32,000 nucleotides of DNA, taken from assembly GCA_001430755.1 (NCBI GenBank), contig CP013062.1, positions 810,001 through 842,000 on the forward strand, read 5' to 3'. The notes under the pieces are model-generated. The model saw nothing but the letters and a program-made list of their open reading frames with translations, was not told where the DNA came from and did not search any database. How positions within the stretch are numbered: the first letter of the stretch is position 1; every line of letters starts with the position of its first letter. Position numbers and translations under genes: made by a program. This stretch comes from Candidatus Peribacter riflensis (GTDB taxonomy: Bacteria > Patescibacteriota > Gracilibacteria > Peribacterales > Peribacteraceae). This document shows, in pieces, positions 2,625 through 27,530 of the stretch.

Positions 2625-4292
2625 CTACTGCCAGTAGTACGTTCCCTGCAGCTGTGATTCGGTGAACGGCACCCACGAGAAGCTCGTCGTGCCATCGGTC
2701 CACGTAAGAGCTCCGGCGGAGGAAACGGATCCTGCCGGCGTGATCGAGATCTGCAGTCCCGCACTCTGCGAGGCCGAAGGAATGGTGATATCGCCCCGGA
2801 GGGTGATGACGCGCGTTCCGCTCGTCACGGTTCCGACTCCTTCGGGAATCGCCGCACAGACAATGGAGGTTCCGACAACGGAACAATTCGTGCGATCGGT
2901 CGATCCGTCGGCGCCCAACGTTACATTGGCAAGCGTCACTCCGCCGCTGGTTCCCAGCGCAAAGGTGATATCGGTCACGAGCAGATCCGCGCTGCCATCG
3001 CCGCGGCCGCCCTGCAGCCTCCACTGGCCGATCGTGCGGCCGACCCCGCCCACGAGCGCGTCCTCTCCCGGACCGGCATTCGCAATGGACGTGAAGGTGG
3101 AACGCGCGGTCTCGAAGGCCTGATAGGTCTCGGTGGAGGAATCGCTGTACGAGCTGTGACTCCAATCACCGCGGCCCTCAATCGTGAACGTATCAATCTC
3201 AATATCTTCTCCGCTCTCGCCGCCCTGATCGAAACTGCGGGTGATGGCCCGCGCATAGACCGATACCTCCTCTCGGCGGGCTGCTGCAATGAGCCCGCTC
3301 GCCGAGTGGAGTGTGAAAGAAGCAGGATCGTCCGTATCGCGGGAGGCACCTCCCAGGTACCGGCCGTCAGCCGATGCGTACAGACGCACCTGATCAACGG
3401 ATGGCACGGCGGCGGTGAACGTCACCGTGATATCCTCCACGGTGAAGGGTTCCGAGTTATTGAAGATCTTGGCGGCTCCAAGAATGGGTGAAACCGTTCC
3501 AAGACGCAGAAAAGAGGGCGTCTGCGAGAAATCCGGCCCGGGATCGGTGGCGAACGAGGATGCCGAGGAGGCAGAAGAAACGGAGGAAATCGATGAGACC
3601 GATGAAGCCGACGAAGAGCGACCAGCCGAAGAGCGGGACGAGGAAGAAATGGAGGAAGAAGATGCTTCCCCGCTCTGCACCGCGCGGAGTGCCATGAGCT
3701 CCCCGCGGCTCCAGGCGAGGAACGAAACGGTGATCTGCGCTACCTCACCGCGCGTGAGCGCATGGGCAGCATCGACCCCCGGGAGCGCGATGTCCTCGGC
3801 CACTGCGGCTGCAAGGAACGGCTCATACCACTCATCGGATTGGATGTGCATCTGCGGCACATCGAATGCGAGAACGAGAATCTTCACAGCTTCGGCATAG
3901 TTCACCGTGCGCTCGGGCACGAACAGCCACTGCTCGCGCGGAACGGTGGAATCGCCATTGCCCTGCACGAAACCGAGCTCTCTGGCCAGACAAACCGGCG
4001 CTGCATACCACTGATCCGGCTGGACATCGGGGAAGCACATCTCGGCTGGGAGCGGCGATGTATAGCCAAGAACCATCATCAGCACCTTGGTGAACTCGGC
4101 ACGGTTGACGTGTTGCTCCGGGCGGAATGTGCCGTCCGGGTACCCCTGCAGTATCCCCTCTTCCGTGAGTGCGCTCACTGCCACCGCCGTCACACGATCA
4201 CGCGGGGCATCGGTGTACGGAAGATGCAACGTGTCGTAGGCAAAAGCGGTAAACGGGAACAGGCCGATGAGAAGAATGAAAATCTTGCGCAT
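2625..4292 (-). CDS. secreted cell-surface protein with three N-terminal SLH repeats, a Ser-rich linker and a beta-rich C-terminal region
   Basis: Signal peptide MRKIFILLIGLFPFTAFA. SLH-like repeats are present (for example EEGILQGYPDGTFRPEQHVNRAEFTKVL, plus two further W-Y...A repeats). A long poly-Ser linker (SSSSISSSSRSSAGRSSSASSVSSISSVSSASSASS) follows. The C-terminal half has no recognised domain. Confidence 0.8.
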   Translation of the reverse strand: MRKIFILLIGLFPFTAFAYDTLHLPYTDAPRDRVTAVAVSALTEEGILQGYPDGTFRPEQHVNRAEFTKVLMMVLGYTSPLPAEMCFPDVQPDQWYAAPVCLARELGFVQGNGDSTVPREQWLFVPERTVNYAEAVKILVLAFDVPQMHIQSDEWYEPFLAAAVAEDIALPGVDAAHALTRGEVAQITVSFLAWSRGELMALRAVQSGEASSSSISSSSRSSAGRSSSASSVSSISSVSSASSASSFATDPGPDFSQTPSFLRLGTVSPILGAAKIFNNSEPFTVEDITVTFTAAVPSVDQVRLYASADGRYLGGASRDTDDPASFTLHSASGLIAAARREEVSVYARAITRSFDQGGESGEDIEIDTFTIEGRGDWSHSSYSDSSTETYQAFETARSTFTSIANAGPGEDALVGGVGRTIGQWRLQGGRGDGSADLLVTDITFALGTSGGVTLANVTLGADGSTDRTNCSVVGTSIVCAAIPEGVGTVTSGTRVITLRGDITIPSASQSAGLQISITPAGSVSSAGALTWTDGTTSFSWVPFTESQLQGTYYWQ

Positions 4293-4336: not shown

Positions 4337-5131
4337 CTACTCATGGGCAGCCAGGTAACGGGTCCCGATTGGCTCGTCATCAATGAGCACGCGAGGAATG
4401 ACGTCGGCCTCATGCGCATAGGCGATGACGGATTCGATGCCGTGCCGGGCAAGCATCGTGGCAACGCGGTCTTTGCTCTTCATGCCGCCTCGCCCGTTTT
4501 TCGAGGAAGAACCATTCAAGAACCTCCGATGTTCAGTCGAGCCATAAGGAATCTCGTGAATGAGACTGTTCTCATCCTGAAGATCTCTGAGAATGCCGGG
4601 AACGCTGGTAAGAAAGAGCACCCGTCGTGCGCCGATCAGCTGTGCGACATCCCCGGCCAGCTGGTCGTTGTCGAAACGAAATTCACGCACAGCTACCGTA
4701 TCGTTCTCATTGAAAATGGGAATGCTTGGAATCTGCGAACTGAAAATCTTCTGGAGGGTATGGCTCAAATTTCTGCGCCTCAGGCGGCTATCCATATCCG
4801 AATGCGTCACGAGAATCTGGTTCGCGATGCAGCCGTGTGCCTGCAGCTCTTTCAGGTATTCCGCAAAGAGCATGGGCTGCCCGGCGGATGCATACATTTG
4901 CAGAGTGGCGAGATCTTCGTCGTCACATTTTTCAACGCCATAAATATCGCGGCCGGTGGTAGCCGCTCCTGAAGAAATAAGACCGAGACGGGCAATCTGT
5001 TTCCGAACAATGGCAAGCTGCTGAGCCACGGAAGAGACAGCCATCTTATCCAAATGATTCTCAGAGGTGGTGAGGCCATCTGAACCGATTTTCACGGCTG
5101 CAGTATCGATGGCATTTCGGTGATGATGCAT
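4337..5131 (-). CDS. proB: glutamate 5-kinase (short form without PUA domain)
   Basis: Matches ProB blocks: AVKIGSDGLT, ISSGAATTGR, IPIFNENDTVAVREFRFDNDQLAGDVAQLIGA, GRGGMKSK. Start is placed at the ATG at 5131 (MHHHRNAID...). The longer track ORF reaching 5245 would run through an intrinsic terminator. Confidence 0.85.
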   Translation of the reverse strand: MHHHRNAIDTAAVKIGSDGLTTSENHLDKMAVSSVAQQLAIVRKQIARLGLISSGAATTGRDIYGVEKCDDEDLATLQMYASAGQPMLFAEYLKELQAHGCIANQILVTHSDMDSRLRRRNLSHTLQKIFSSQIPSIPIFNENDTVAVREFRFDNDQLAGDVAQLIGARRVLFLTSVPGILRDLQDENSLIHEIPYGSTEHRRFLNGSSSKNGRGGMKSKDRVATMLARHGIESVIAYAHEADVIPRVLIDDEPIGTRYLAAHE

Positions 5132-5153
5132 GGGATGAATGAGAATGAAATAC

Positions 5154-5175
5154 AAAAAATCCGGGGGAACCCGGA
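5154..5175 (-). terminator. intrinsic terminator / candidate attenuator upstream of proB
   Basis: Minus strand reads TCCGGG-TTCC-CCCGGA followed by TTTTTT. The structure ends about 22 nt upstream of the proB ATG. Confidence 0.6.
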
Positions 5176-5219
5176 TAGCGACTTGGGGGCAGGTGCCCCG
5201 CTTCGACTCAAAAAGAGTT

Positions 5220-5291
5220 TTAAGCAGGCAGCACCTCCCCCGCACGCGGCGGAGTGAAGGAACTGCCCGGCAGAGTCACGACATGCGTCAT
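5220..5291 (-). CDS. candidate leader peptide, 23 codons: MTHVVTLPGSSFTPPRAGEVLPA
   Basis: ATG lies 9 nt downstream of a TACAGT -10 hexamer. Four Pro codons are present, including a CCG CCG pair. The ORF contains CGGGGGA, the complement of TCCCCCG in the downstream terminator. It lies between the promoter and the terminator in front of proB. Confidence 0.4.
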   Translation of the reverse strand: MTHVVTLPGSSFTPPRAGEVLPA

Positions 5292-5300
5292 GCTGGGAAC

Positions 5301-5329
5301 ACTGTACTGGAGCCAAAATCGCACGTCAA
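5301..5329 (-). promoter_or_regulatory. sigma70-like promoter TTGACG-17 nt-TACAGT
   Basis: Read on the minus strand immediately after the DAHP synthase stop codon: -35 at 5329..5324 and -10 at 5306..5301. Confidence 0.55.
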
Positions 5330-5330
5330 G

Positions 5331-6401
5331 CTAACGCGTGGCTGGCTGGCCGAAGATACGGTCGGCGGCATCTGCTGCCTGCAGAAGAAGCACTTCCGTA
5401 TCCTCCCACGAGAGACAGGGATCGGTGATGGATTGGCCATCACGGCGCATCGTCGCAGCAATATCCTGTCTCCCGCTGATGATGAAACTCTCCACCATGC
5501 AGCCCCGCACCATAGCGTAGCCGTCCAGCCCATCCTCGCGTGCCCGCAGCACCGTCTGCACCACATGCTTCTGGAGCGTGGGATCCTTGCCGCTCCCGTT
5601 ACCGCAGTTGCCGTGGCTTGCATCCACGATGATGGCGGGATCCGCAATATCGCGCTTGGGCTCCTTCATCAGCTTTGCGGCACGTGCCATGCTCTGAGGA
5701 TCGTAGTTGGGTCCCGCAGGGCTGCCACGGAGAATCAGGTGTGCGGAACGGTTCCCCCCGGTACGAACATGCCACCCGCCATGGGGAAGGTGCTGCGGGT
5801 GCTGTGTGCGCTGCACGCCGTCCACGCCGACCTCGATAGATCCCTCTACCGGATGCTTCACACCAACCGGGCAATCGTCATCCATAGAGAGCAACCCCGA
5901 TGCCACGTCGCGGTGCTGCTGGTCCGCAGAGCTGCGTGCGCCCAGCGCAACGTAGGTGAGGAGGTCGGCGAAGTACGGATCATCGCCGATGTAGAGCATT
6001 TCATCAGCCAACGGCAATTGGGTGCCCACGCGGTGCATCATCTCGCGACAGGACCAGATGCCCTTCACGATATCCTGCTCTGCGAGCGGATCGGGCTGGA
6101 TGAGGGGGCCCGGCCATCCCTCCGAGGTACGCGGCTTTTGGAGGTAACAGCGCATCACCACCTCGATACGCTCATGAATCCGTTCGCGGAATCGCGCCAG
6201 ACGGTCGGCATATTCCTGTACCGCCTCAGAGGACCAGGCAGAGCAGGGCCCGACGATCATGAGCAGGCGCGGATCGGTGCCATTGAGCACATTCCGGACA
6301 CGGGCACGGTGGTCCTTCACGCGGTGCGTGCCCGGTGAAGATGGAAATCGGTCGAGGACTTCTTCGGCACTGGGGAGTGGATTGATTCTCTGATACGTCA
6401 T
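5331..6401 (-). CDS. aroG: 3-deoxy-7-phosphoheptulonate (DAHP) synthase, class I alpha (AroF/G/H type)
   Basis: Collinear with E. coli AroG blocks: RLLMIVGPCS, KPRTSEGWPG, ALGARSSADQQHRDVASGL, CPVGVKH, HLILRG, IVDASHGN, VRGCMVESF, GQSITDPCLSWEDTE. Start is placed at the ATG at 6401 (MTYQRINPLP...). The feedback specificity implied by the symbol is not determined. Confidence 0.92.
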   Translation of the reverse strand: MTYQRINPLPSAEEVLDRFPSSPGTHRVKDHRARVRNVLNGTDPRLLMIVGPCSAWSSEAVQEYADRLARFRERIHERIEVVMRCYLQKPRTSEGWPGPLIQPDPLAEQDIVKGIWSCREMMHRVGTQLPLADEMLYIGDDPYFADLLTYVALGARSSADQQHRDVASGLLSMDDDCPVGVKHPVEGSIEVGVDGVQRTQHPQHLPHGGWHVRTGGNRSAHLILRGSPAGPNYDPQSMARAAKLMKEPKRDIADPAIIVDASHGNCGNGSGKDPTLQKHVVQTVLRAREDGLDGYAMVRGCMVESFIISGRQDIAATMRRDGQSITDPCLSWEDTEVLLLQAADAADRIFGQPATR

Positions 6402-6432
6402 GGTGAGGGTGGGAAATGAGGAAAAACAGTCA

Positions 6433-6744
6433 CTACAGACGGATGATTGCGTGGACCATCTGGCAAATAATCGCCCGGCGATCCTGAAGATCGGGCATCG
6501 CGAGGAGCGCCTCCTCCATGCCCATCGCATGCTGATTCTGCTCATGCAGACAAAGAGCGGTAGAAATCTCAGAGGGGATCTCGATGCCGCGCAGCAGGCA
6601 CCGCTGCATCAGATCCATTGCAGCGCGCCGGATGAGCTTGCGATCGGTGACGAGGTACGGACCGATACGGATATCCTGTTCCGCCTGCGCATCGGTCTGG
6701 GAGCCATCTGAGATGTGAGGCCGTTCGAGAATGGCGGTACTCAT
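6433..6744 (-). CDS. hypothetical protein (103 aa), first gene of the DAHP synthase transcription unit
   Basis: Intact ORF ending 31 nt upstream of the DAHP synthase start, and located directly downstream of the Phe/Tyr leader plus terminator. I could not recognise chorismate mutase (AroQ or AroH) signatures. Confidence 0.5.
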   Translation of the reverse strand: MSTAILERPHISDGSQTDAQAEQDIRIGPYLVTDRKLIRRAAMDLMQRCLLRGIEIPSEISTALCLHEQNQHAMGMEEALLAMPDLQDRRAIICQMVHAIIRL

Positions 6745-6766
6745 GACAGAGAATGGGAATCAAAGT

Positions 6767-6794
6767 AAAAAAACGCCTTCCGCTGGGGGAAGGC
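6767..6794 (-). terminator. intrinsic terminator of the aromatic attenuator (unit 1)
   Basis: Minus strand reads GCCTTCC-CCCAGC-GGAAGGC, then G, then TTTTTTT. It ends 22 nt upstream of the ATG at 6744 and starts 27 nt after the leader ORF stop. Confidence 0.75.
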
Positions 6795-6821
6795 TCGAAT
6801 GCATCTGAATGGCTGAGAAAA

Positions 6822-6902
6822 TTACTTCAGATCATACGGCTCCTTCCCCGCAAGATAGGGGGTAAAGAAGAAGCCGTAAAAGTAAGATTGGCGCTGAGCC
6901 AT
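6822..6902 (-). CDS. Phe/Tyr-rich leader peptide, 26 codons: MAQRQSYFYGFFFTPYLAGKEPYDLK
   Basis: Hand-translated codon by codon. It has 4 Phe and 4 Tyr, six of them in the seven codons YFYGFFF. It is preceded by TTGACT-16-TACACT with 11 nt to the ATG and followed by an intrinsic terminator. The internal GGGGAAGG is complementary to the terminator 5' arm CCTTCCCC. Confidence 0.6.
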   Translation of the reverse strand: MAQRQSYFYGFFFTPYLAGKEPYDLK

Positions 6903-6913
6903 GAGATGCGCGA

Positions 6914-6941
6914 AGTGTAGAGCAGAAGCGGCTAAAGTCAA
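6914..6941 (-). promoter_or_regulatory. sigma70-like promoter TTGACT-16 nt-TACACT
   Basis: Minus strand: -35 at 6941..6936 (overlapping the stop of the 100-aa ORF) and -10 at 6919..6914. The ATG of the leader ORF lies 11 nt downstream of the -10. Confidence 0.6.
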
Positions 6942-7240
6942 TGAGCGTGCCCGTTACTGCCACGACCATTGGCCGGGCGCATCCATTCCCACAGCTTGCG
7001 ATCCACCTCAGTGGAAACGCGATAGACACCTCCCAGCTCTCGGGAGATGCGGGCAGCAATTGCCTTCCGGGCAGAAGGACTGCGATCGAGCACGGCAATC
7101 ATCGCCGAGCGGAAATCCGGATAGGACCGACCGCCAATCGTCAGTACCCGACCATTGTGATACAACTGTGAGAGCGCTCCATCGAGCGTTTCAGAGCAAC
7201 GTACATCGCGAGTGGATACATCGGGTGGTGAAGAGATCAT
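6938..7240 (-). CDS. hypothetical protein (about 100 aa) downstream of the Phe-rich leader
   Basis: ORF MISSPPDVSTRDVRCSETLDGALSQLYHNGRVLTIGGRSYPDF... with no recognised domain. Start is uncertain: the track ORF begins at a GTG at 7348 but would then encode the perfect hairpin and overlap the leader ORF. Confidence 0.45.
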   Translation of the reverse strand: MISSPPDVSTRDVRCSETLDGALSQLYHNGRVLTIGGRSYPDFRSAMIAVLDRSPSARKAIAARISRELGGVYRVSTEVDRKLWEWMRPANGRGSNGHAH

Positions 7241-7275
7241 GAGAAATAAGGGAAATGAGAAATACACCCCTCCTT

Positions 7276-7301
7276 GCCACGCCTTTCGCGAAAGGCGTGG
7301 C
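7276..7301 (-). promoter_or_regulatory. perfect 11-bp stem-loop (candidate attenuator or terminator of unit 2)
   Basis: GCCACGCCTTT-CGCG-AAAGGCGTGGC. It is flanked 5' by GAGCCTTCCCC and 3' by AAGGAGGGG plus a U-rich tract (TGTATTTCTCATTTCCCTTATTTCTC) running up to the ATG at 7240. Confidence 0.5.
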
Positions 7302-7335
7302 ACTGCTTGGGGAAGGCTCCGTGGTCTGAAGTAAG

Positions 7336-7413
7336 TTAGCTCAGACACATCGGCTCCTGCCCCGCACTAAACGGGAAAGCGAAGAAGCCGAACGTAAACG
7401 TCTGAACGGACAT
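7336..7413 (-). CDS. Phe-rich leader peptide, 25 codons: MSVQTFTFGFFAFPFSAGQEPMCLS
   Basis: Hand-translated. Six Phe fall within ten consecutive codons. It is a paralogue of the 6822-6902 mini-ORF at both nucleotide and peptide level (GFF, P-x-x-AG-x-EP). It is preceded by TTGACA-16-TAAAGT with 10 nt to the ATG. Confidence 0.55.
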   Translation of the reverse strand: MSVQTFTFGFFAFPFSAGQEPMCLS

Positions 7414-7423
7414 GTACAGGCAC

Positions 7424-7451
7424 ACTTTACTTCGAATCGTGATGCTGTCAA
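7424..7451 (-). promoter_or_regulatory. sigma70-like promoter TTGACA-16 nt-TAAAGT
   Basis: Minus strand: consensus -35 at 7451..7446 and -10 at 7429..7424. It lies in the divergent region opposite rsmA. Confidence 0.6.
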
Positions 7452-7463
7452 TGTCAGCCCCGC

Positions 7464-8279
7464 ATGATTTCGCTCCCCGATGAGATTCGGCAATTCTGCA
7501 GGAATCATGGACTCAGGCTCAATACAGATCTGGGCCAGCACTTCCTGCTGGATGGCTCTATTTTGGATCGCATCATCGAAACGGCGCAATTGAGACCGGT
7601 CGATACGGTGGTGGAAATCGGCCCGGGCGTCGGCGTGCTGACCCGGGAGCTCCTCAAGTTTGCCGGATCCGTGATCGCCATCGAACTGGATGCACGAATG
7701 ATTCCCCTCCTCAGGGAATTCACAGGAAGAGATCCCAAACTGAACGTGGTCCAGGGCAATGCTCTGCAGATCGCCATGCCGGAGTCGCCGTACAAGGTTG
7801 TCGCGAATATTCCCTACCACATCACATCCCCGCTCCTGCGGCACCTCTTCCTCGAATCTAAAAAACCACCGACCAGTCTCACCCTGCTCATTCAGCGGGA
7901 GGTGGCCGAACGCATCTGTGATACGAAAGACGCCGGCATGCTCACGATCCTCGTGGGGCTGTTCGGCACGCCGAAGATTGTCGCCCGCGTACCGCCCGAT
8001 GCCTTTCTCCCACCGCCCAAAGTGGACTCGGCCGTCCTGCACATCGCGTGCTTTGCAGAGCCGCTGGCCGACGGCAAAACCATCGAACGGCTCTTCAAAC
8101 TCACGAAAATCGGCTTCGGCCAGAAACGGAAGATGCTCCGGAACACCCTCGGGACGTTCCAGGGAGTGGCAGAACGCCTTGCAGGGCTTGGCATTGAGCA
8201 AAGCCGACGCCCGCAGACACTTTCGGTGCAGGAATGGATCGCGCTTGCGCGCGCGTGGCCGGATGATCGGGATGGATGA
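7464..8279 (+). CDS. rsmA: 16S rRNA (adenine1518/1519-N6)-dimethyltransferase
   Basis: KsgA/RsmA family blocks LGQHFLLD and VVEIGPGVGVLT (SAM motif I), NIPYHITSP, and typical length. Confidence 0.93.
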   Translation: MISLPDEIRQFCRNHGLRLNTDLGQHFLLDGSILDRIIETAQLRPVDTVVEIGPGVGVLTRELLKFAGSVIAIELDARMIPLLREFTGRDPKLNVVQGNALQIAMPESPYKVVANIPYHITSPLLRHLFLESKKPPTSLTLLIQREVAERICDTKDAGMLTILVGLFGTPKIVARVPPDAFLPPPKVDSAVLHIACFAEPLADGKTIERLFKLTKIGFGQKRKMLRNTLGTFQGVAERLAGLGIEQSRRPQTLSVQEWIALARAWPDDRDG

Positions 8280-26687: not shown

Positions 26688-27530
26688 AACCGCCGCCACA
26701 TCACAAATCCCCCTGTACGGACACCGCTTGCAGACTAGCGCACTCGGGGTGGGCCGAAAGTCCTTCGCCTCCATGCGCTCGCGGATGAGCTTGATCTGCG
26801 TGCGCGCGTCTTTGAGCTGCGAGGGGGACCGCGCGGTCGTCCGCTCCGTCACGCCCTCCTCCGAAAGGAAGAGGAGAACGAGCTCGGAACAGGGCTTGTC
26901 GAAAAGGTGCCCAGCGGCGAGTGCGTACAGCGAAAGCTGCAGATCGGCGTCGGCCTCGGCCTGTGTGCAGGGCGCGGTGGTCTTGAAATCCACGATGGAA
27001 ACTCCCTGCTCCGTCTGCTCGATGCGGTCGAGCCTCCCCGTCACGTGCATGCCGTCAATCTCGACTGCAAACCCCTTCTCCACTGCAACGACCTTGCGCG
27101 GAACCTGGGACCACCATCCATGGAATTGCCGCATAATTTCCTCGCCCCGCTTGCGGGCGAAATCCGCCTCGAGGCGCGTCTTGTACGTATCGAAGACGAA
27201 ACATTCGTGCCAGATCTCCAGCAGTTTCTGCTCCGTTACATCCGCGTGCACGGACGCTTTCTCTTCGCGAAAGAGAATGAGCTGATCCTCCCGCACCCCT
27301 TGTCCTTGTCCTTTTCCCTTAGTCCTTAGTCCTTTGTCCTTCGTCTCCAGTCCTCCACCGAACAACTTCATCTCCTCTTCGCCCCATTGCTTCAACGCAT
27401 TATGCACGCTGCCGCCGAAACTCTCTCCTTCCGAAACGCCCCACGGAATTTTTTTGACGTGCGAAAATTCAAACTGACGGGGGCAGGTACGATAGCGTCG
27501 AAGCTGGGAGTAAGAGAGGGACACGGACAA
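26685..27530 (-). CDS. PD-(D/E)XK nuclease, Cas4/RecB-like with 4-Cys cluster
   Basis: N-terminal CPRQF plus C-terminal CKRCPYRGIC gives the C...CxxCxxxxxC pattern of Cas4/AddB 4Fe-4S nucleases. The catalytic core is GRLDRIE...SIVDFKT, followed by QLSLYALA (QxxxY). Confidence 0.8.
   Translation of the reverse strand: MSVSLSYSQLRRYRTCPRQFEFSHVKKIPWGVSEGESFGGSVHNALKQWGEEEMKLFGGGLETKDKGLRTKGKGQGQGVREDQLILFREEKASVHADVTEQKLLEIWHECFVFDTYKTRLEADFARKRGEEIMRQFHGWWSQVPRKVVAVEKGFAVEIDGMHVTGRLDRIEQTEQGVSIVDFKTTAPCTQAEADADLQLSLYALAAGHLFDKPCSELVLLFLSEEGVTERTTARSPSQLKDARTQIKLIRERMEAKDFRPTPSALVCKRCPYRGICDVAAV

Follow-up and report, generated by a model that had tools for sequence, protein, structure and literature searches.

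How does a bacterium of the candidate phyla radiation (CPR), whose members combine small genomes and limited biosynthesis with hardly any described regulatory RNAs, regulate genes of amino-acid biosynthesis? The question is raised by a 32-kb stretch of DNA from Candidatus Peribacter riflensis (Peregrinibacteria, CPR), called the window here. Three leader units are arranged in tandem on its minus strand, in the 5' to 3' order unit 2, orf4, unit 1, orf3, DAHP synthase, unit 3, proB. All three follow the same plan: a sigma-70-like promoter, a mini open reading frame (ORF) of 23-26 codons, hairpins, and then a gene. An initial annotation had interpreted them as one family of leader-peptide attenuators, built on a common G-rich core and directed to different amino acids by exchange of the codon run. 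The sequence strings on which it relied were all found in place, on the minus strand. It is likely, in our assessment, that units 1 and 2 are paralogous attenuators of the classical ribosome-mediated type, and that unit 3 has the same layout and belongs to a separate, proline-type (Pro-type) family.

Predicted folding and switching of units 1 and 2

Units 1 and 2 are clearly and significantly paralogous. Their local alignment scores 48, compared with 16.1 +/- 2.2 for shuffled sequences, and none of 1000 shuffles reached that score. The leader ORF of unit 1 (6822..6902, MAQRQSYFYGFFFTPYLAGKEPYDLK and a stop codon; this and all other features of the locus are on the minus strand) has 26 codons, of which seven encode Phe or Tyr (YFYGFFF; four Phe and three Tyr in the whole ORF). 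The leader ORF of unit 2 (7336..7413, MSVQTFTFGFFAFPFSAGQEPMCLS and a stop codon) has 25 codons with six Phe and no Tyr or Trp. In the minimum free energy (MFE) folds of both units, GGCUUCUUC is base-paired to GAAGGAGCC and CCC to GGG. In other words, the codon run, or region 1, forms the 5' strand of a helix (P1) in which it pairs with the G-rich core. Region 1 is a Tyr/Phe run at 6858..6878 in unit 1 (UACGGCUUCUUCUUUACCCCC) and a Phe run at 7371..7390 in unit 2 (CGGCUUCUUCGCUUUCCCGU), and the cores are located at 6840..6851 (GCGGGGAAGGAG) and 7354..7365 (GCGGGGCAGGAG), respectively. The folds of all three units of the window are more stable than those of shuffles (z = -3.4 to -3.8).

The helix recurs in related bacteria. 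Syntenic loci (L001-L009) were obtained via contigs encoding relatives of the DAHP synthase, 80 further loci came from a metagenome scan, and a few more came from a genome scan; the scan of the genome collection with the DAHP synthase protein returned no close relative, and L001 is the closest metagenomic one. A recurrent arrangement in these relatives is ksgA, leader(s), (small ORF), DAHP synthase, Pro-type leader, (proB). More than 25 distinct aromatic leaders were gathered from them, for example MTHSGIFFGAYWYPFSAGKVLLRLS, MSRQTFCFGAFWFSYFTEGKELTRLSN, MVYSTLNYGAYTFSFTAEGVCVRD, MIHQQTFFYGFWNFAFSAGSVL and MTHQTFVFGTYTFAFSAETVL. When the 15 pairs of P1 were counted in 23 aromatic homologs, 77.9% of the cells were paired, compared with 47-56% when the strands were slid. 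Pairs covary between AU and UA (8/7) and among UA, GC and GU (11/3/2), five pairs change on both sides, and the P1 score was reached by 1 of 500 shuffles.

The core also pairs downstream. Unit 1 ends in an intrinsic terminator (6767..6794) that reads GCCUUCC-CCCAGC-GGAAGGC and then GUUUUUUU; its hairpin spans 6794-6775 and region 3, CCTTCCCC, occupies 6793-6786 in the 5' arm and the loop. Such canonical terminators, with 7-bp GC-rich stems followed by U6-7, come after units 1 and 3. In unit 2, region 3 (CCTTCCCC, 7309..7316) complements the core at 7 of 8 positions and is the 5' arm of a composite terminator, whose true stem is CCUUCCCC with GGAGGGG and whose region 4, AGGAGGGG, and degenerate U-rich tail, TGTATTTCTCATTT, lie at 7253..7274. 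Because the core pairs upstream with the codons and downstream with the terminator arm, it constitutes region 2 of a four-segment attenuator.

RNAalifold, run on whole units aligned with MAFFT, found no more than the base of P1, with the 3' halves misaligned, and was replaced by a comparison of cognate and permuted core/arm duplexes. In 24 related units the cognate duplexes average -18.8 kcal/mol and the permuted ones -16.1 +/- 0.6, and none of 20000 permutations, which ignore the kinship of the sequences, did as well as the cognate pairing. The gain comes from diverged lineages, such as the second unit of L004, where GGGGCAGGAGCC pairs with GGCUUCUGCCCC at -29 kcal/mol, and also L015, L016 and L020. 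The initial annotation had paired the core with a C-rich downstream partner and asked for covariation between the two; in units of the type of 1 and 2 this pairing is indeed kept by co-variation across homologs.

Does a ribosome on the codon run change the fold? Base-pair probabilities were computed with the RNA masked from -15 to +12 nucleotides (nt) around the ribosomal A site. The terminator of unit 1 has a probability of ~0 when the A site is on Y-G-F-F-F and of ~0.9-1.0 when it is earlier or later, when it is at the stop codon, or when no ribosome is present. The result is the same for footprints of +9, +12 and +15 nt, and most homologs behave alike. In unit 2 the pairing of the core with region 3 has a probability of ~0.8 during stalls on codons 4-12, and that of region 3 with region 4 is ~0.5 otherwise. 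An antiterminator (2:3) that excludes the terminator and is favoured with a ribosome on region 1 is thus found in units 1 and 2 and in most of 24 homologs. Nested inside it, between regions 2 and 3, the folds show a separate stop-codon hairpin (AUCUGAA...UUCAGAU at 6800..6834 in unit 1; GUCUGAG...UUCAGAC at 7324..7348 in unit 2), whose stems vary among homologs (GUCUGA/UCAGAC, AUCUGAA/UUCAGAU, CGUCU/AGACG).

The leader ORFs are probably translated. Homologs keep the frame and the stop codon of the leaders in the window, unit 2 orthologs among them keep the leader frame, and the indels of aromatic leaders are multiples of three (3 nt; 33 nt in L172), which argues for leader translation. The unit 2 leader is matched by a profile hidden Markov model (HMM) and a covariance model at E values of 1e-17 to 1e-21, although its ORF was in the training alignment. 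Units 1 and 2 thus each combine a translatable ORF, a cluster of cognate codons, an intrinsic terminator, an antiterminator exclusive with it, and a 1:2 helix, which is what their description as leader-peptide attenuators had implied.

Only three promoter-like sites were found on the minus strand between 4300 and 8300, each just upstream of a mini-ORF. The site of unit 2 (7424..7451) has TTGACA, a 16-nt spacer and TAAAGT ending 10 nt before the ATG, an arrangement that is kept in orthologs. The site of unit 1 (6914..6941) has TTGACT, a 16-nt spacer and TACACT ending 11 nt before the ATG, and that of unit 3 (5301..5329) has TTGACG, a 17-nt spacer and TACAGT ending 9 nt before it, so that the distance from the end of the -10 hexamer to the leader ATG is 9-11 nt in the window. 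In 26 of 30 homologous units, TTGACN-16/17-TANNNT ends 6-12 nt before the start codon, and none of the leader units examined has a Shine-Dalgarno sequence. Judged from this spacing and this lack, the leader ORFs are probably translated from leaderless or near-leaderless transcripts. Genes of this locus likewise have no Shine-Dalgarno sequence and carry C/U-rich tracts upstream (5129-5160, 6742-6770, 6399-6432 and 7238-7266).

How would these elements act together? In units 1 and 2, transcription would start a few nucleotides before the leader ATG, as we infer, and yield a transcript that is leaderless or nearly so. Region 1, the Phe/Tyr codon run, would form a helix with region 2, the purine-rich core GCGGGGNAGGAGCC. 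A shortage of charged tRNA-Phe or tRNA-Tyr would make the ribosome stall on the run and release region 2, whose segment GGGGAAGG would then pair with region 3, CCUUCCCC, the 5' arm of the terminator. The terminator could not form, and RNA polymerase would read into orf3 and DAHP synthase from unit 1, or into orf4 (in a relative, prephenate dehydratase) from unit 2. If the leader is translated to its end, or not translated at all, helices 1:2 and 3:4 would form and transcription would stop.

The gene after unit 2 is orf4 (6938..7240), which encodes a conserved hypothetical protein of 100 amino acids and whose stop codon is abutted by the -35 of unit 1. The first gene after unit 1 is orf3 (6433..6744; PeribacterA2_0769), which encodes a conserved hypothetical protein of 103 amino acids and, in the close clade, always stands between the leader and DAHP synthase (5331..6401; class I, aroFGH type, by Pfam/NCBIfam), whose protein is 100% identical to one from Candidatus Peribacter. 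Neither orf3 nor orf4 has a sequence match in Pfam, NCBIfam or the PDB. A search for orf3 homologs returned only orf3 itself, its single-sequence AlphaFold model is unusable (pLDDT 47), and no homology was found among the three families of small ORFs downstream of leaders. What the leaders add is a metabolic context. Leaders of the unit 1 type, with Phe and Tyr, precede orf3 and DAHP synthase; leaders of the unit 2 type, which are essentially Phe-only, precede prephenate dehydratase in L007 and orf4 elsewhere; and in more distant lineages leaders directly before DAHP synthase carry Phe, Tyr and Trp. The Phe attenuators point to a probable role of orf3 and orf4 in the metabolism of aromatic amino acids, of which they may be unrecognised components or regulators.

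The terminator of unit 2 differs from that of its orthologs. The initial annotation had placed the partner of the core just 5' of a perfect hairpin. The partner is indeed at 7316-7309, but the real stem is the one described above, and the 28-nt palindrome (7275..7302), the longest perfect inverted repeat in the window, is within its loop, 6 nt beyond the end of region 3. It is absent from the unit 2 orthologs of L001, L007 and L004, and the orthologs of L003 and L001 have GGGAGGGG/GGAGGGG and then a normal U-run, TTTTATT. From this comparison the palindrome appears to be a lineage-specific insertion in the terminator loop. Perfect or near-perfect palindromes centred on TTCGCGAA were seen in terminator loops of the window (7275-7302), L003 (~2988-3014) and L004 (~1646-1672), that is, in unit 2 of the window and L003 and in unit 1 of L004. 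They are absent from the orthologous units of other genomes and look like independent insertions of a small palindrome; a second TTCGCGAA site in the window, at 27264, has no comparable palindrome. The possibility that AGGAGGGG is a sequestered Shine-Dalgarno sequence was rejected: its distance to a GTG is 1 nt and to the ATG 26 nt, local genes are C/U-rich before their starts and have no Shine-Dalgarno sequence, and orthologs show the 3' arm of a terminator followed by a U-run at this position.

Tandem units also appear in other states. In L005 a degenerate remnant of a second aromatic leader (3700-3765, TTCGCTTCGGTTTCTTTTTCCCGTTCAGTACGGGGTAGCGG) lies upstream of the intact one, which suggests the loss of a tandem unit. 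On the minus strand of L094 (~3303-3400) there is a second unit with an Ala/Phe-rich leader, MSLSRAFAGAFASFFTKGAASYA and a stop codon, weakly matched by the Phe covariance model (19.4 bits, E 0.0064), which represents a diverged form of the unit in the unit 2 slot.

The G-rich core and the relation of aromatic to Pro-type leaders

Is the core a module that all three units have in common? The motif GCGGGGNAGGNG has exactly three matches in the 32 kb, namely the cores of the three units (that of unit 3, GCGGGGGAGGTG, at 5243-5232); shuffles average 0.12 matches and none of 100 reached three, in a test that is circular because the pattern was drawn from those same sites. Evidence free of this comes from outside the window. 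In ~150 kb of related, non-redundant Peribacteria loci all 18 matches are inside leader ORFs, compared with 13 matches in 1.18 Mb of unrelated DNA.

The core also encodes part of each leader peptide. The three peptides close with FFFTPYLAGKEPYDLK, FAFPFSAGQEPMCLS and FTPPRAGEVLPA, and P-x-x-A-G-x-E is common to the window units and their close orthologs, in the close clade only. In deeper homologs the peptide motif is dissolved (SYFTEGKE, FSFTAEGV, FSFSEEKV, FSAETVL), and in unit 1 of L001 the spacing is altered and the sequence is PLYRAGKA. Where the peptide motif dissolves, a run of purines that complements the terminator arm persists. Furthermore, the Ala-Gly codons are GCG GGG in 18/18 close-clade cases, without synonymous variation, and such invariance at synonymous sites indicates a constraint on the RNA and not on the peptide. 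A CCC or CCG codon would pair with GGG and UUCUUC with GAAGGA, so that P-x-x-A-G-x-E is a by-product of RNA pairing. The earlier idea of an independent peptide/RNA module does not survive these findings: the core is region 2, with the upstream sensor codons as a further partner, so that its many purines are accounted for by the UUC and CCG codons.

The relatives were searched for further members. A DNA pattern for the terminator chassis, GCCTTCCC..GAAGGYGTTTTT, found, among the matches listed, mostly generic terminators of unrelated bacteria, only four Peribacteria/Patescibacteria loci of the same kind, and no new members upstream of other amino-acid genes. A detector that ignores the motif (promoter, short ORF and terminator), run on ~0.5 Mb of related loci, returned aromatic-type and Pro-type leaders only, besides one or two likely chance hits, e.g. 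at the end of the rmuC gene in L202.

The Pro-type leaders are a recognisable family. Their HMM gives E values of 1e-7 to 1e-19 for members that neighbour the aro unit in a number of lineages (L001, L003, L004, L007, L056, L135, L009, L016 and L172), and their insertions are in frame (+30 nt in L003, +30 nt in L172). Three of them (L009, L016 and L172) have a simple architecture in which the core CGGGAAGG pairs with a CCUUCCC(G)...GGAGGGG terminator followed by a U-run, like the Phe units; the 5' arm is CCUUCAC in L172. These simple units are predicted to switch for stalls on codons 3-12, including Pro 8 and Pro 10, and the leader of L172, MFLQATLPVPFTTPTIPSLSSDVPCAGRCLAA, is directly before proB. 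An unannotated ORF of ~105-118 amino acids follows the Pro-type leader in several relatives. It stands before proB in L004 (3317-3637) and L056 (921-1235), replaces proB in L009 (4196-4504) and L016 (3205-3558), and is missing from the window.

Did the two types of leader arise from one another? One explanation is that only units 1 and 2 are a family, and that the core of the proB unit arose by convergence or chance, with no common chassis and no retargeting from Phe to Pro. This explanation claims a substantial minority share of the probability. Pyrimidine-rich codons (UUC, CCG) need a purine-rich complement in any case, and G-rich/C-rich stems are the norm for terminators. In 1.37 Mb, no cross-matches at E<=10 were obtained with the HMMs of Phe and Pro leaders. 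R1, the covariance model of the Phe leaders, misses unit 3 of the window at E<=10 in 95 kb and gives it only 3.5 bits locally, confined to P1. The local match of unit 3 to either Phe unit is 14-15 nt long and is reached by 77-180 of 1000 dinucleotide shuffles, and the families of small ORFs downstream are mutually unrelated. However, the core starts at nt 46-50 from the ATG and is read in the frame GCG GGG in all three window units, and units 1 and 3 align without gaps as G-x-x-F-T-P-x-x-A-G. R1 aligns with the whole Pro-type leader of L009, start codon to stop codon, in colinear order (12.7 bits; E 0.0023 in 401 nt, 0.54 in 95 kb), and the simple Pro-type units use a CCUUCCC-type arm with GGAGGGG, as unit 2 does. 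In addition, the units are always adjacent and have the same spacing between promoter and ATG.

Taken together, a shared ancestry of all three window units is only suggested, and descent of the Pro-type from an aromatic unit is plausible, with the chances roughly balanced. Of the proposed family of three, the paralogy of units 1 and 2 is secure, while the likeness of unit 3 is within chance and has no profile cross-matches. The proposed exchange of the codon run from target to target fares similarly: among aromatic homologs the composition of the run tracks the downstream gene, but the step from Phe to Pro has no significant link.

The leader of proB

Unit 3 has the layout of the other units. 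Its leader ORF (5220..5291, MTHVVTLPGSSFTPPRAGEVLPA and a stop codon) has 23 codons with four Pro, including a PP pair. A long P1 hairpin (5226..5268) joins GGGCAGUUCCUUCACUCCGC to GCGGGGGAGGUGCUGCCU, which contains the core; in the MFE fold CCUUC.C.CCGC pairs with GCGGGGGAGG, and in seven sequences P1 is 91.7-100% paired. A middle hairpin, GGGGCACCUGCCCC(C), at 5185..5199 and an intrinsic terminator at 5153..5176 (AUCCGGG-UUCC-CCCGGAU then UUUUUU; stem 5176-5159) follow, and then comes proB (4337..5131), a glutamate 5-kinase gene by Pfam/NCBIfam. The proB protein of the window consists of the amino-acid kinase domain only (264 amino acids, no PUA domain) and is below the NCBIfam proB cut-off (161 compared with 186 bits). 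In L001, immediately downstream of proB, there is an IS200/IS605-type Y1 transposase gene (PF01797, 6497-6823), which the window lacks.

What does the core pair with in this unit? TCCCCCG had been named as its partner, and it is present in the loop and 3' arm of the terminator (5168-5162). It is, however, confined to the window and L001, terminator loops in other orthologs read CTTTCT, TTTCAG, ATGA and CCGAAGGT, and no ribosome position removes the terminator in the model. The conserved alternative partner is CACCUGCCCCC, the 3' strand of the middle hairpin, with which the core can pair in 7/7 sequences through G:C, G:U or A:U at one position; in L056 the middle hairpin has a compensatory change from GGUG/CACC to GAUG/CAUC. 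In the simple relatives, then, CGGGAAGG would pair with the CCUUCCC(G) arm, with Pro codons in the sensing window, and in the lineage of the window the conserved partner of the core would be the 3' strand of the intermediate hairpin. The proB unit of the window is predicted to lack an antiterminator of the kind seen in units 1 and 2.

Hand checks found no conserved route from the pairing of core and middle hairpin to the terminator of unit 3. A staggered relay of the his type, a pseudoknot of the 5' arm of the middle hairpin with the loop and 3' arm of the terminator, a CCGGG in the leader that mimics a terminator arm, and a frameshift into an overlapping open frame were each rejected as not conserved or not energetically competitive. 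An open frame of 74 codons (5092-5316) spans the leader, the terminator and the start of proB; it has no ATG or GTG in the predicted transcript and was judged incidental.

Several observations, from this unit and from the others, weigh against the attenuator reading as a whole. Only the PP pair and P22 (K-P-A or L-P-A before the stop) are conserved among its 4 Pro in 23 codons, and the PP codons are only 3 nt from the core. Its terminator has a probability of 0.9-1.0 at every ribosome position and footprint, and the same intact terminator is present in 5/6 of its closest orthologs (L001, L004, L007 and L056 among them). The pairing of core and middle hairpin rests on seven sequences and one compensatory change and is matched by 64 of 500 shuffles. 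In L009 and L016 what follows the Pro-type leader is not proB, but a small ORF (~100 amino acids) and an SLH-like protein. As to units 1 and 2, the permutation test has the blindness to phylogeny already mentioned, unit 2 of the window has a degenerate U-tract (UGUAUUUCUCAUUU) and a terminator stem with a modelled probability of only ~0.5, and the equilibrium model favours the antiterminator even without a ribosome in the second units of L001 and L004. Finally, the sequences, their conservation and covariation and the thermodynamic switching are shown; start sites, termination sites, ribosome stalling and the amino-acid response are all inferred.

The position of unit 3 suggests a further function for its terminator. 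Its -35 starts 1 nt after the stop codon of DAHP synthase (5324-5333) and no terminator lies between; thus, the terminator of unit 3 probably also ends the aro transcript and insulates proB from Phe-controlled read-through. A stronger version of this idea, which we regard as rather unlikely, holds that unit 3 of the window does not respond to amino acids at all. The hairpin and U-run would then be the terminator of the aro genes (orf3 and DAHP synthase) and might end a short leader transcript as well; proB would depend on constitutive leak-through or some other control, and the mini-ORF with its hairpins would be left over from a former unit, decayed or put to new use. The intact terminator at all ribosome positions and footprints is consistent with this version, as are the absence of a conserved complement to either terminator arm, the freely varying loops, the lack of another terminator between DAHP synthase and proB, and the reduction of some orthologs to PP and one further Pro. 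Yet the middle hairpin and a 40-nt block that covers the 3' half of the ORF are near-invariant across lineages with proB proteins no more than 79% identical, which points to strong selection on unit 3. The promoter, ATG, frame and stop codon are also conserved, and the insertion in L003 is in frame. Only 26 nt separate the U-run from the proB ATG, which leaves no room for another promoter, so read-through must be allowed somehow. Moreover, the simpler homologs are predicted to switch, and one of them stands before proB.

A more ambitious proposal joins two claims, and in that joint form it is doubtful. The first is that Peribacteria carry a lineage-specific, locally duplicating leaderless attenuator cassette whose sensor run was rewritten several times (Phe-only, Phe/Tyr, Phe/Tyr/Trp and, following duplication, Pro). 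The second is that the proB copy in the lineage of the window has evolved a relay via its near-invariant intermediate hairpin, or needs either a trans factor or the PPRAGE peptide while it is nascent. If both were true, this would be the first account of ribosome-mediated attenuation, and of its evolution, in the candidate phyla radiation, with a proB relay of a sort that standard attenuator models do not describe. A last explanation, that P-x-x-A-G-x-E or P-P-R-A-G-E works as an arrest or sensor peptide inside the ribosomal exit tunnel and is itself the shared module, is very improbable: it could draw on the presence of the motif in all three units and their close orthologs, on the failure of a simple RNA switch to explain the unit 3 terminator, and on the likeness of R-A-G to the SecM arrest motif (...RAGP; TnaC class), but the motif dissolves in clear homologs in which the RNA complementarity persists, the GCG GGG codons carry the signature of selection on RNA, and P1 contains pairs between the Pro and Gly codons.

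Known attenuators and the place of the Peribacter units

The reading of units 1 and 2 as classical attenuators invites comparison with trpL, pheL-pheA, pheST, hisL, leuL, thrL and ilvL of E. coli. As in those systems, a short ORF rich in cognate codons and an intrinsic terminator stand just before a biosynthetic gene, and four segments form either 1:2 and 3:4 or 2:3. The Phe-run peptide of Peribacter resembles that of pheL, whose run is FFFAFFFTFP. In contrast to the classical attenuators, the Peribacter leader ORFs begin 9-11 nt after the -10 and lack a Shine-Dalgarno sequence, a separate stop-codon hairpin is nested in the antiterminator, the host belongs to the CPR, and the first genes under control encode small uncharacterised proteins. 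T-box riboswitches, which bind uncharged tRNA and have no leader ORF, are likewise one RNA chassis that is retargeted by changing a codon, but their mechanism is different. In the window, Rfam at gathering level matched only a tRNA and no leader or T-box family. A permissive scan of 5100-7470 (E<=10) gave spurious matches only, of <=17 bits, and the only cis-regulatory leader among them was a serC leader fragment (13.5 bits, E 9.9). Full-text literature searches returned no paper linking CPR or Peregrinibacteria with attenuation.

Three published systems share single features with the Peribacter units. The mgtP and mgtL leaders of Salmonella (mgtCBR and mgtA) use Pro codons to link proline availability to alternative RNA structures (PMC3641672). 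They control genes of Mg2+ transport and virulence, not proB, and the proB unit of the window, which has just PP and two single Pro codons, leaves its terminator unaffected in the model. The leaderless polycysteine short ORFs of mycobacteria were described as Cys-responsive attenuators that are largely independent of a canonical intrinsic terminator (bioRxiv 10.1101/834739). As in Peribacter, a short ORF at the 5' end of the transcript senses an amino acid through a codon run; unlike them, the Peribacter units have canonical terminators and a 2:3 antiterminator, and their leaderless status is read from promoter spacing alone. A functional counterpart is aroR-aroF of Corynebacterium glutamicum (Neshat et al. 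2014), where, as PMC11802643 summarises it, ribosome stalling on a Phe-Tyr-Phe leader peptide regulates a DAHP synthase operon. The aromatic-codon leader before a DAHP synthase operon is common to both, whereas the phylum is unrelated, kinship of the sequences would not be expected, and the Peribacter leaders have longer F/Y(/W) runs and form tandem arrays.

Seen beside these systems, the Peribacter units are a lineage-specific addition to a well-known regulatory class in an unusual host, and units 1 and 2 are mechanistically ordinary. The modelled switching indicates that a CPR member would regulate genes of aromatic, and probably also of proline, biosynthesis by classical ribosome-coupled attenuation. 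The tandem paralogs form a natural series, with a different codon run for each controlled gene, that is useful for the study of how attenuator specificity evolves.

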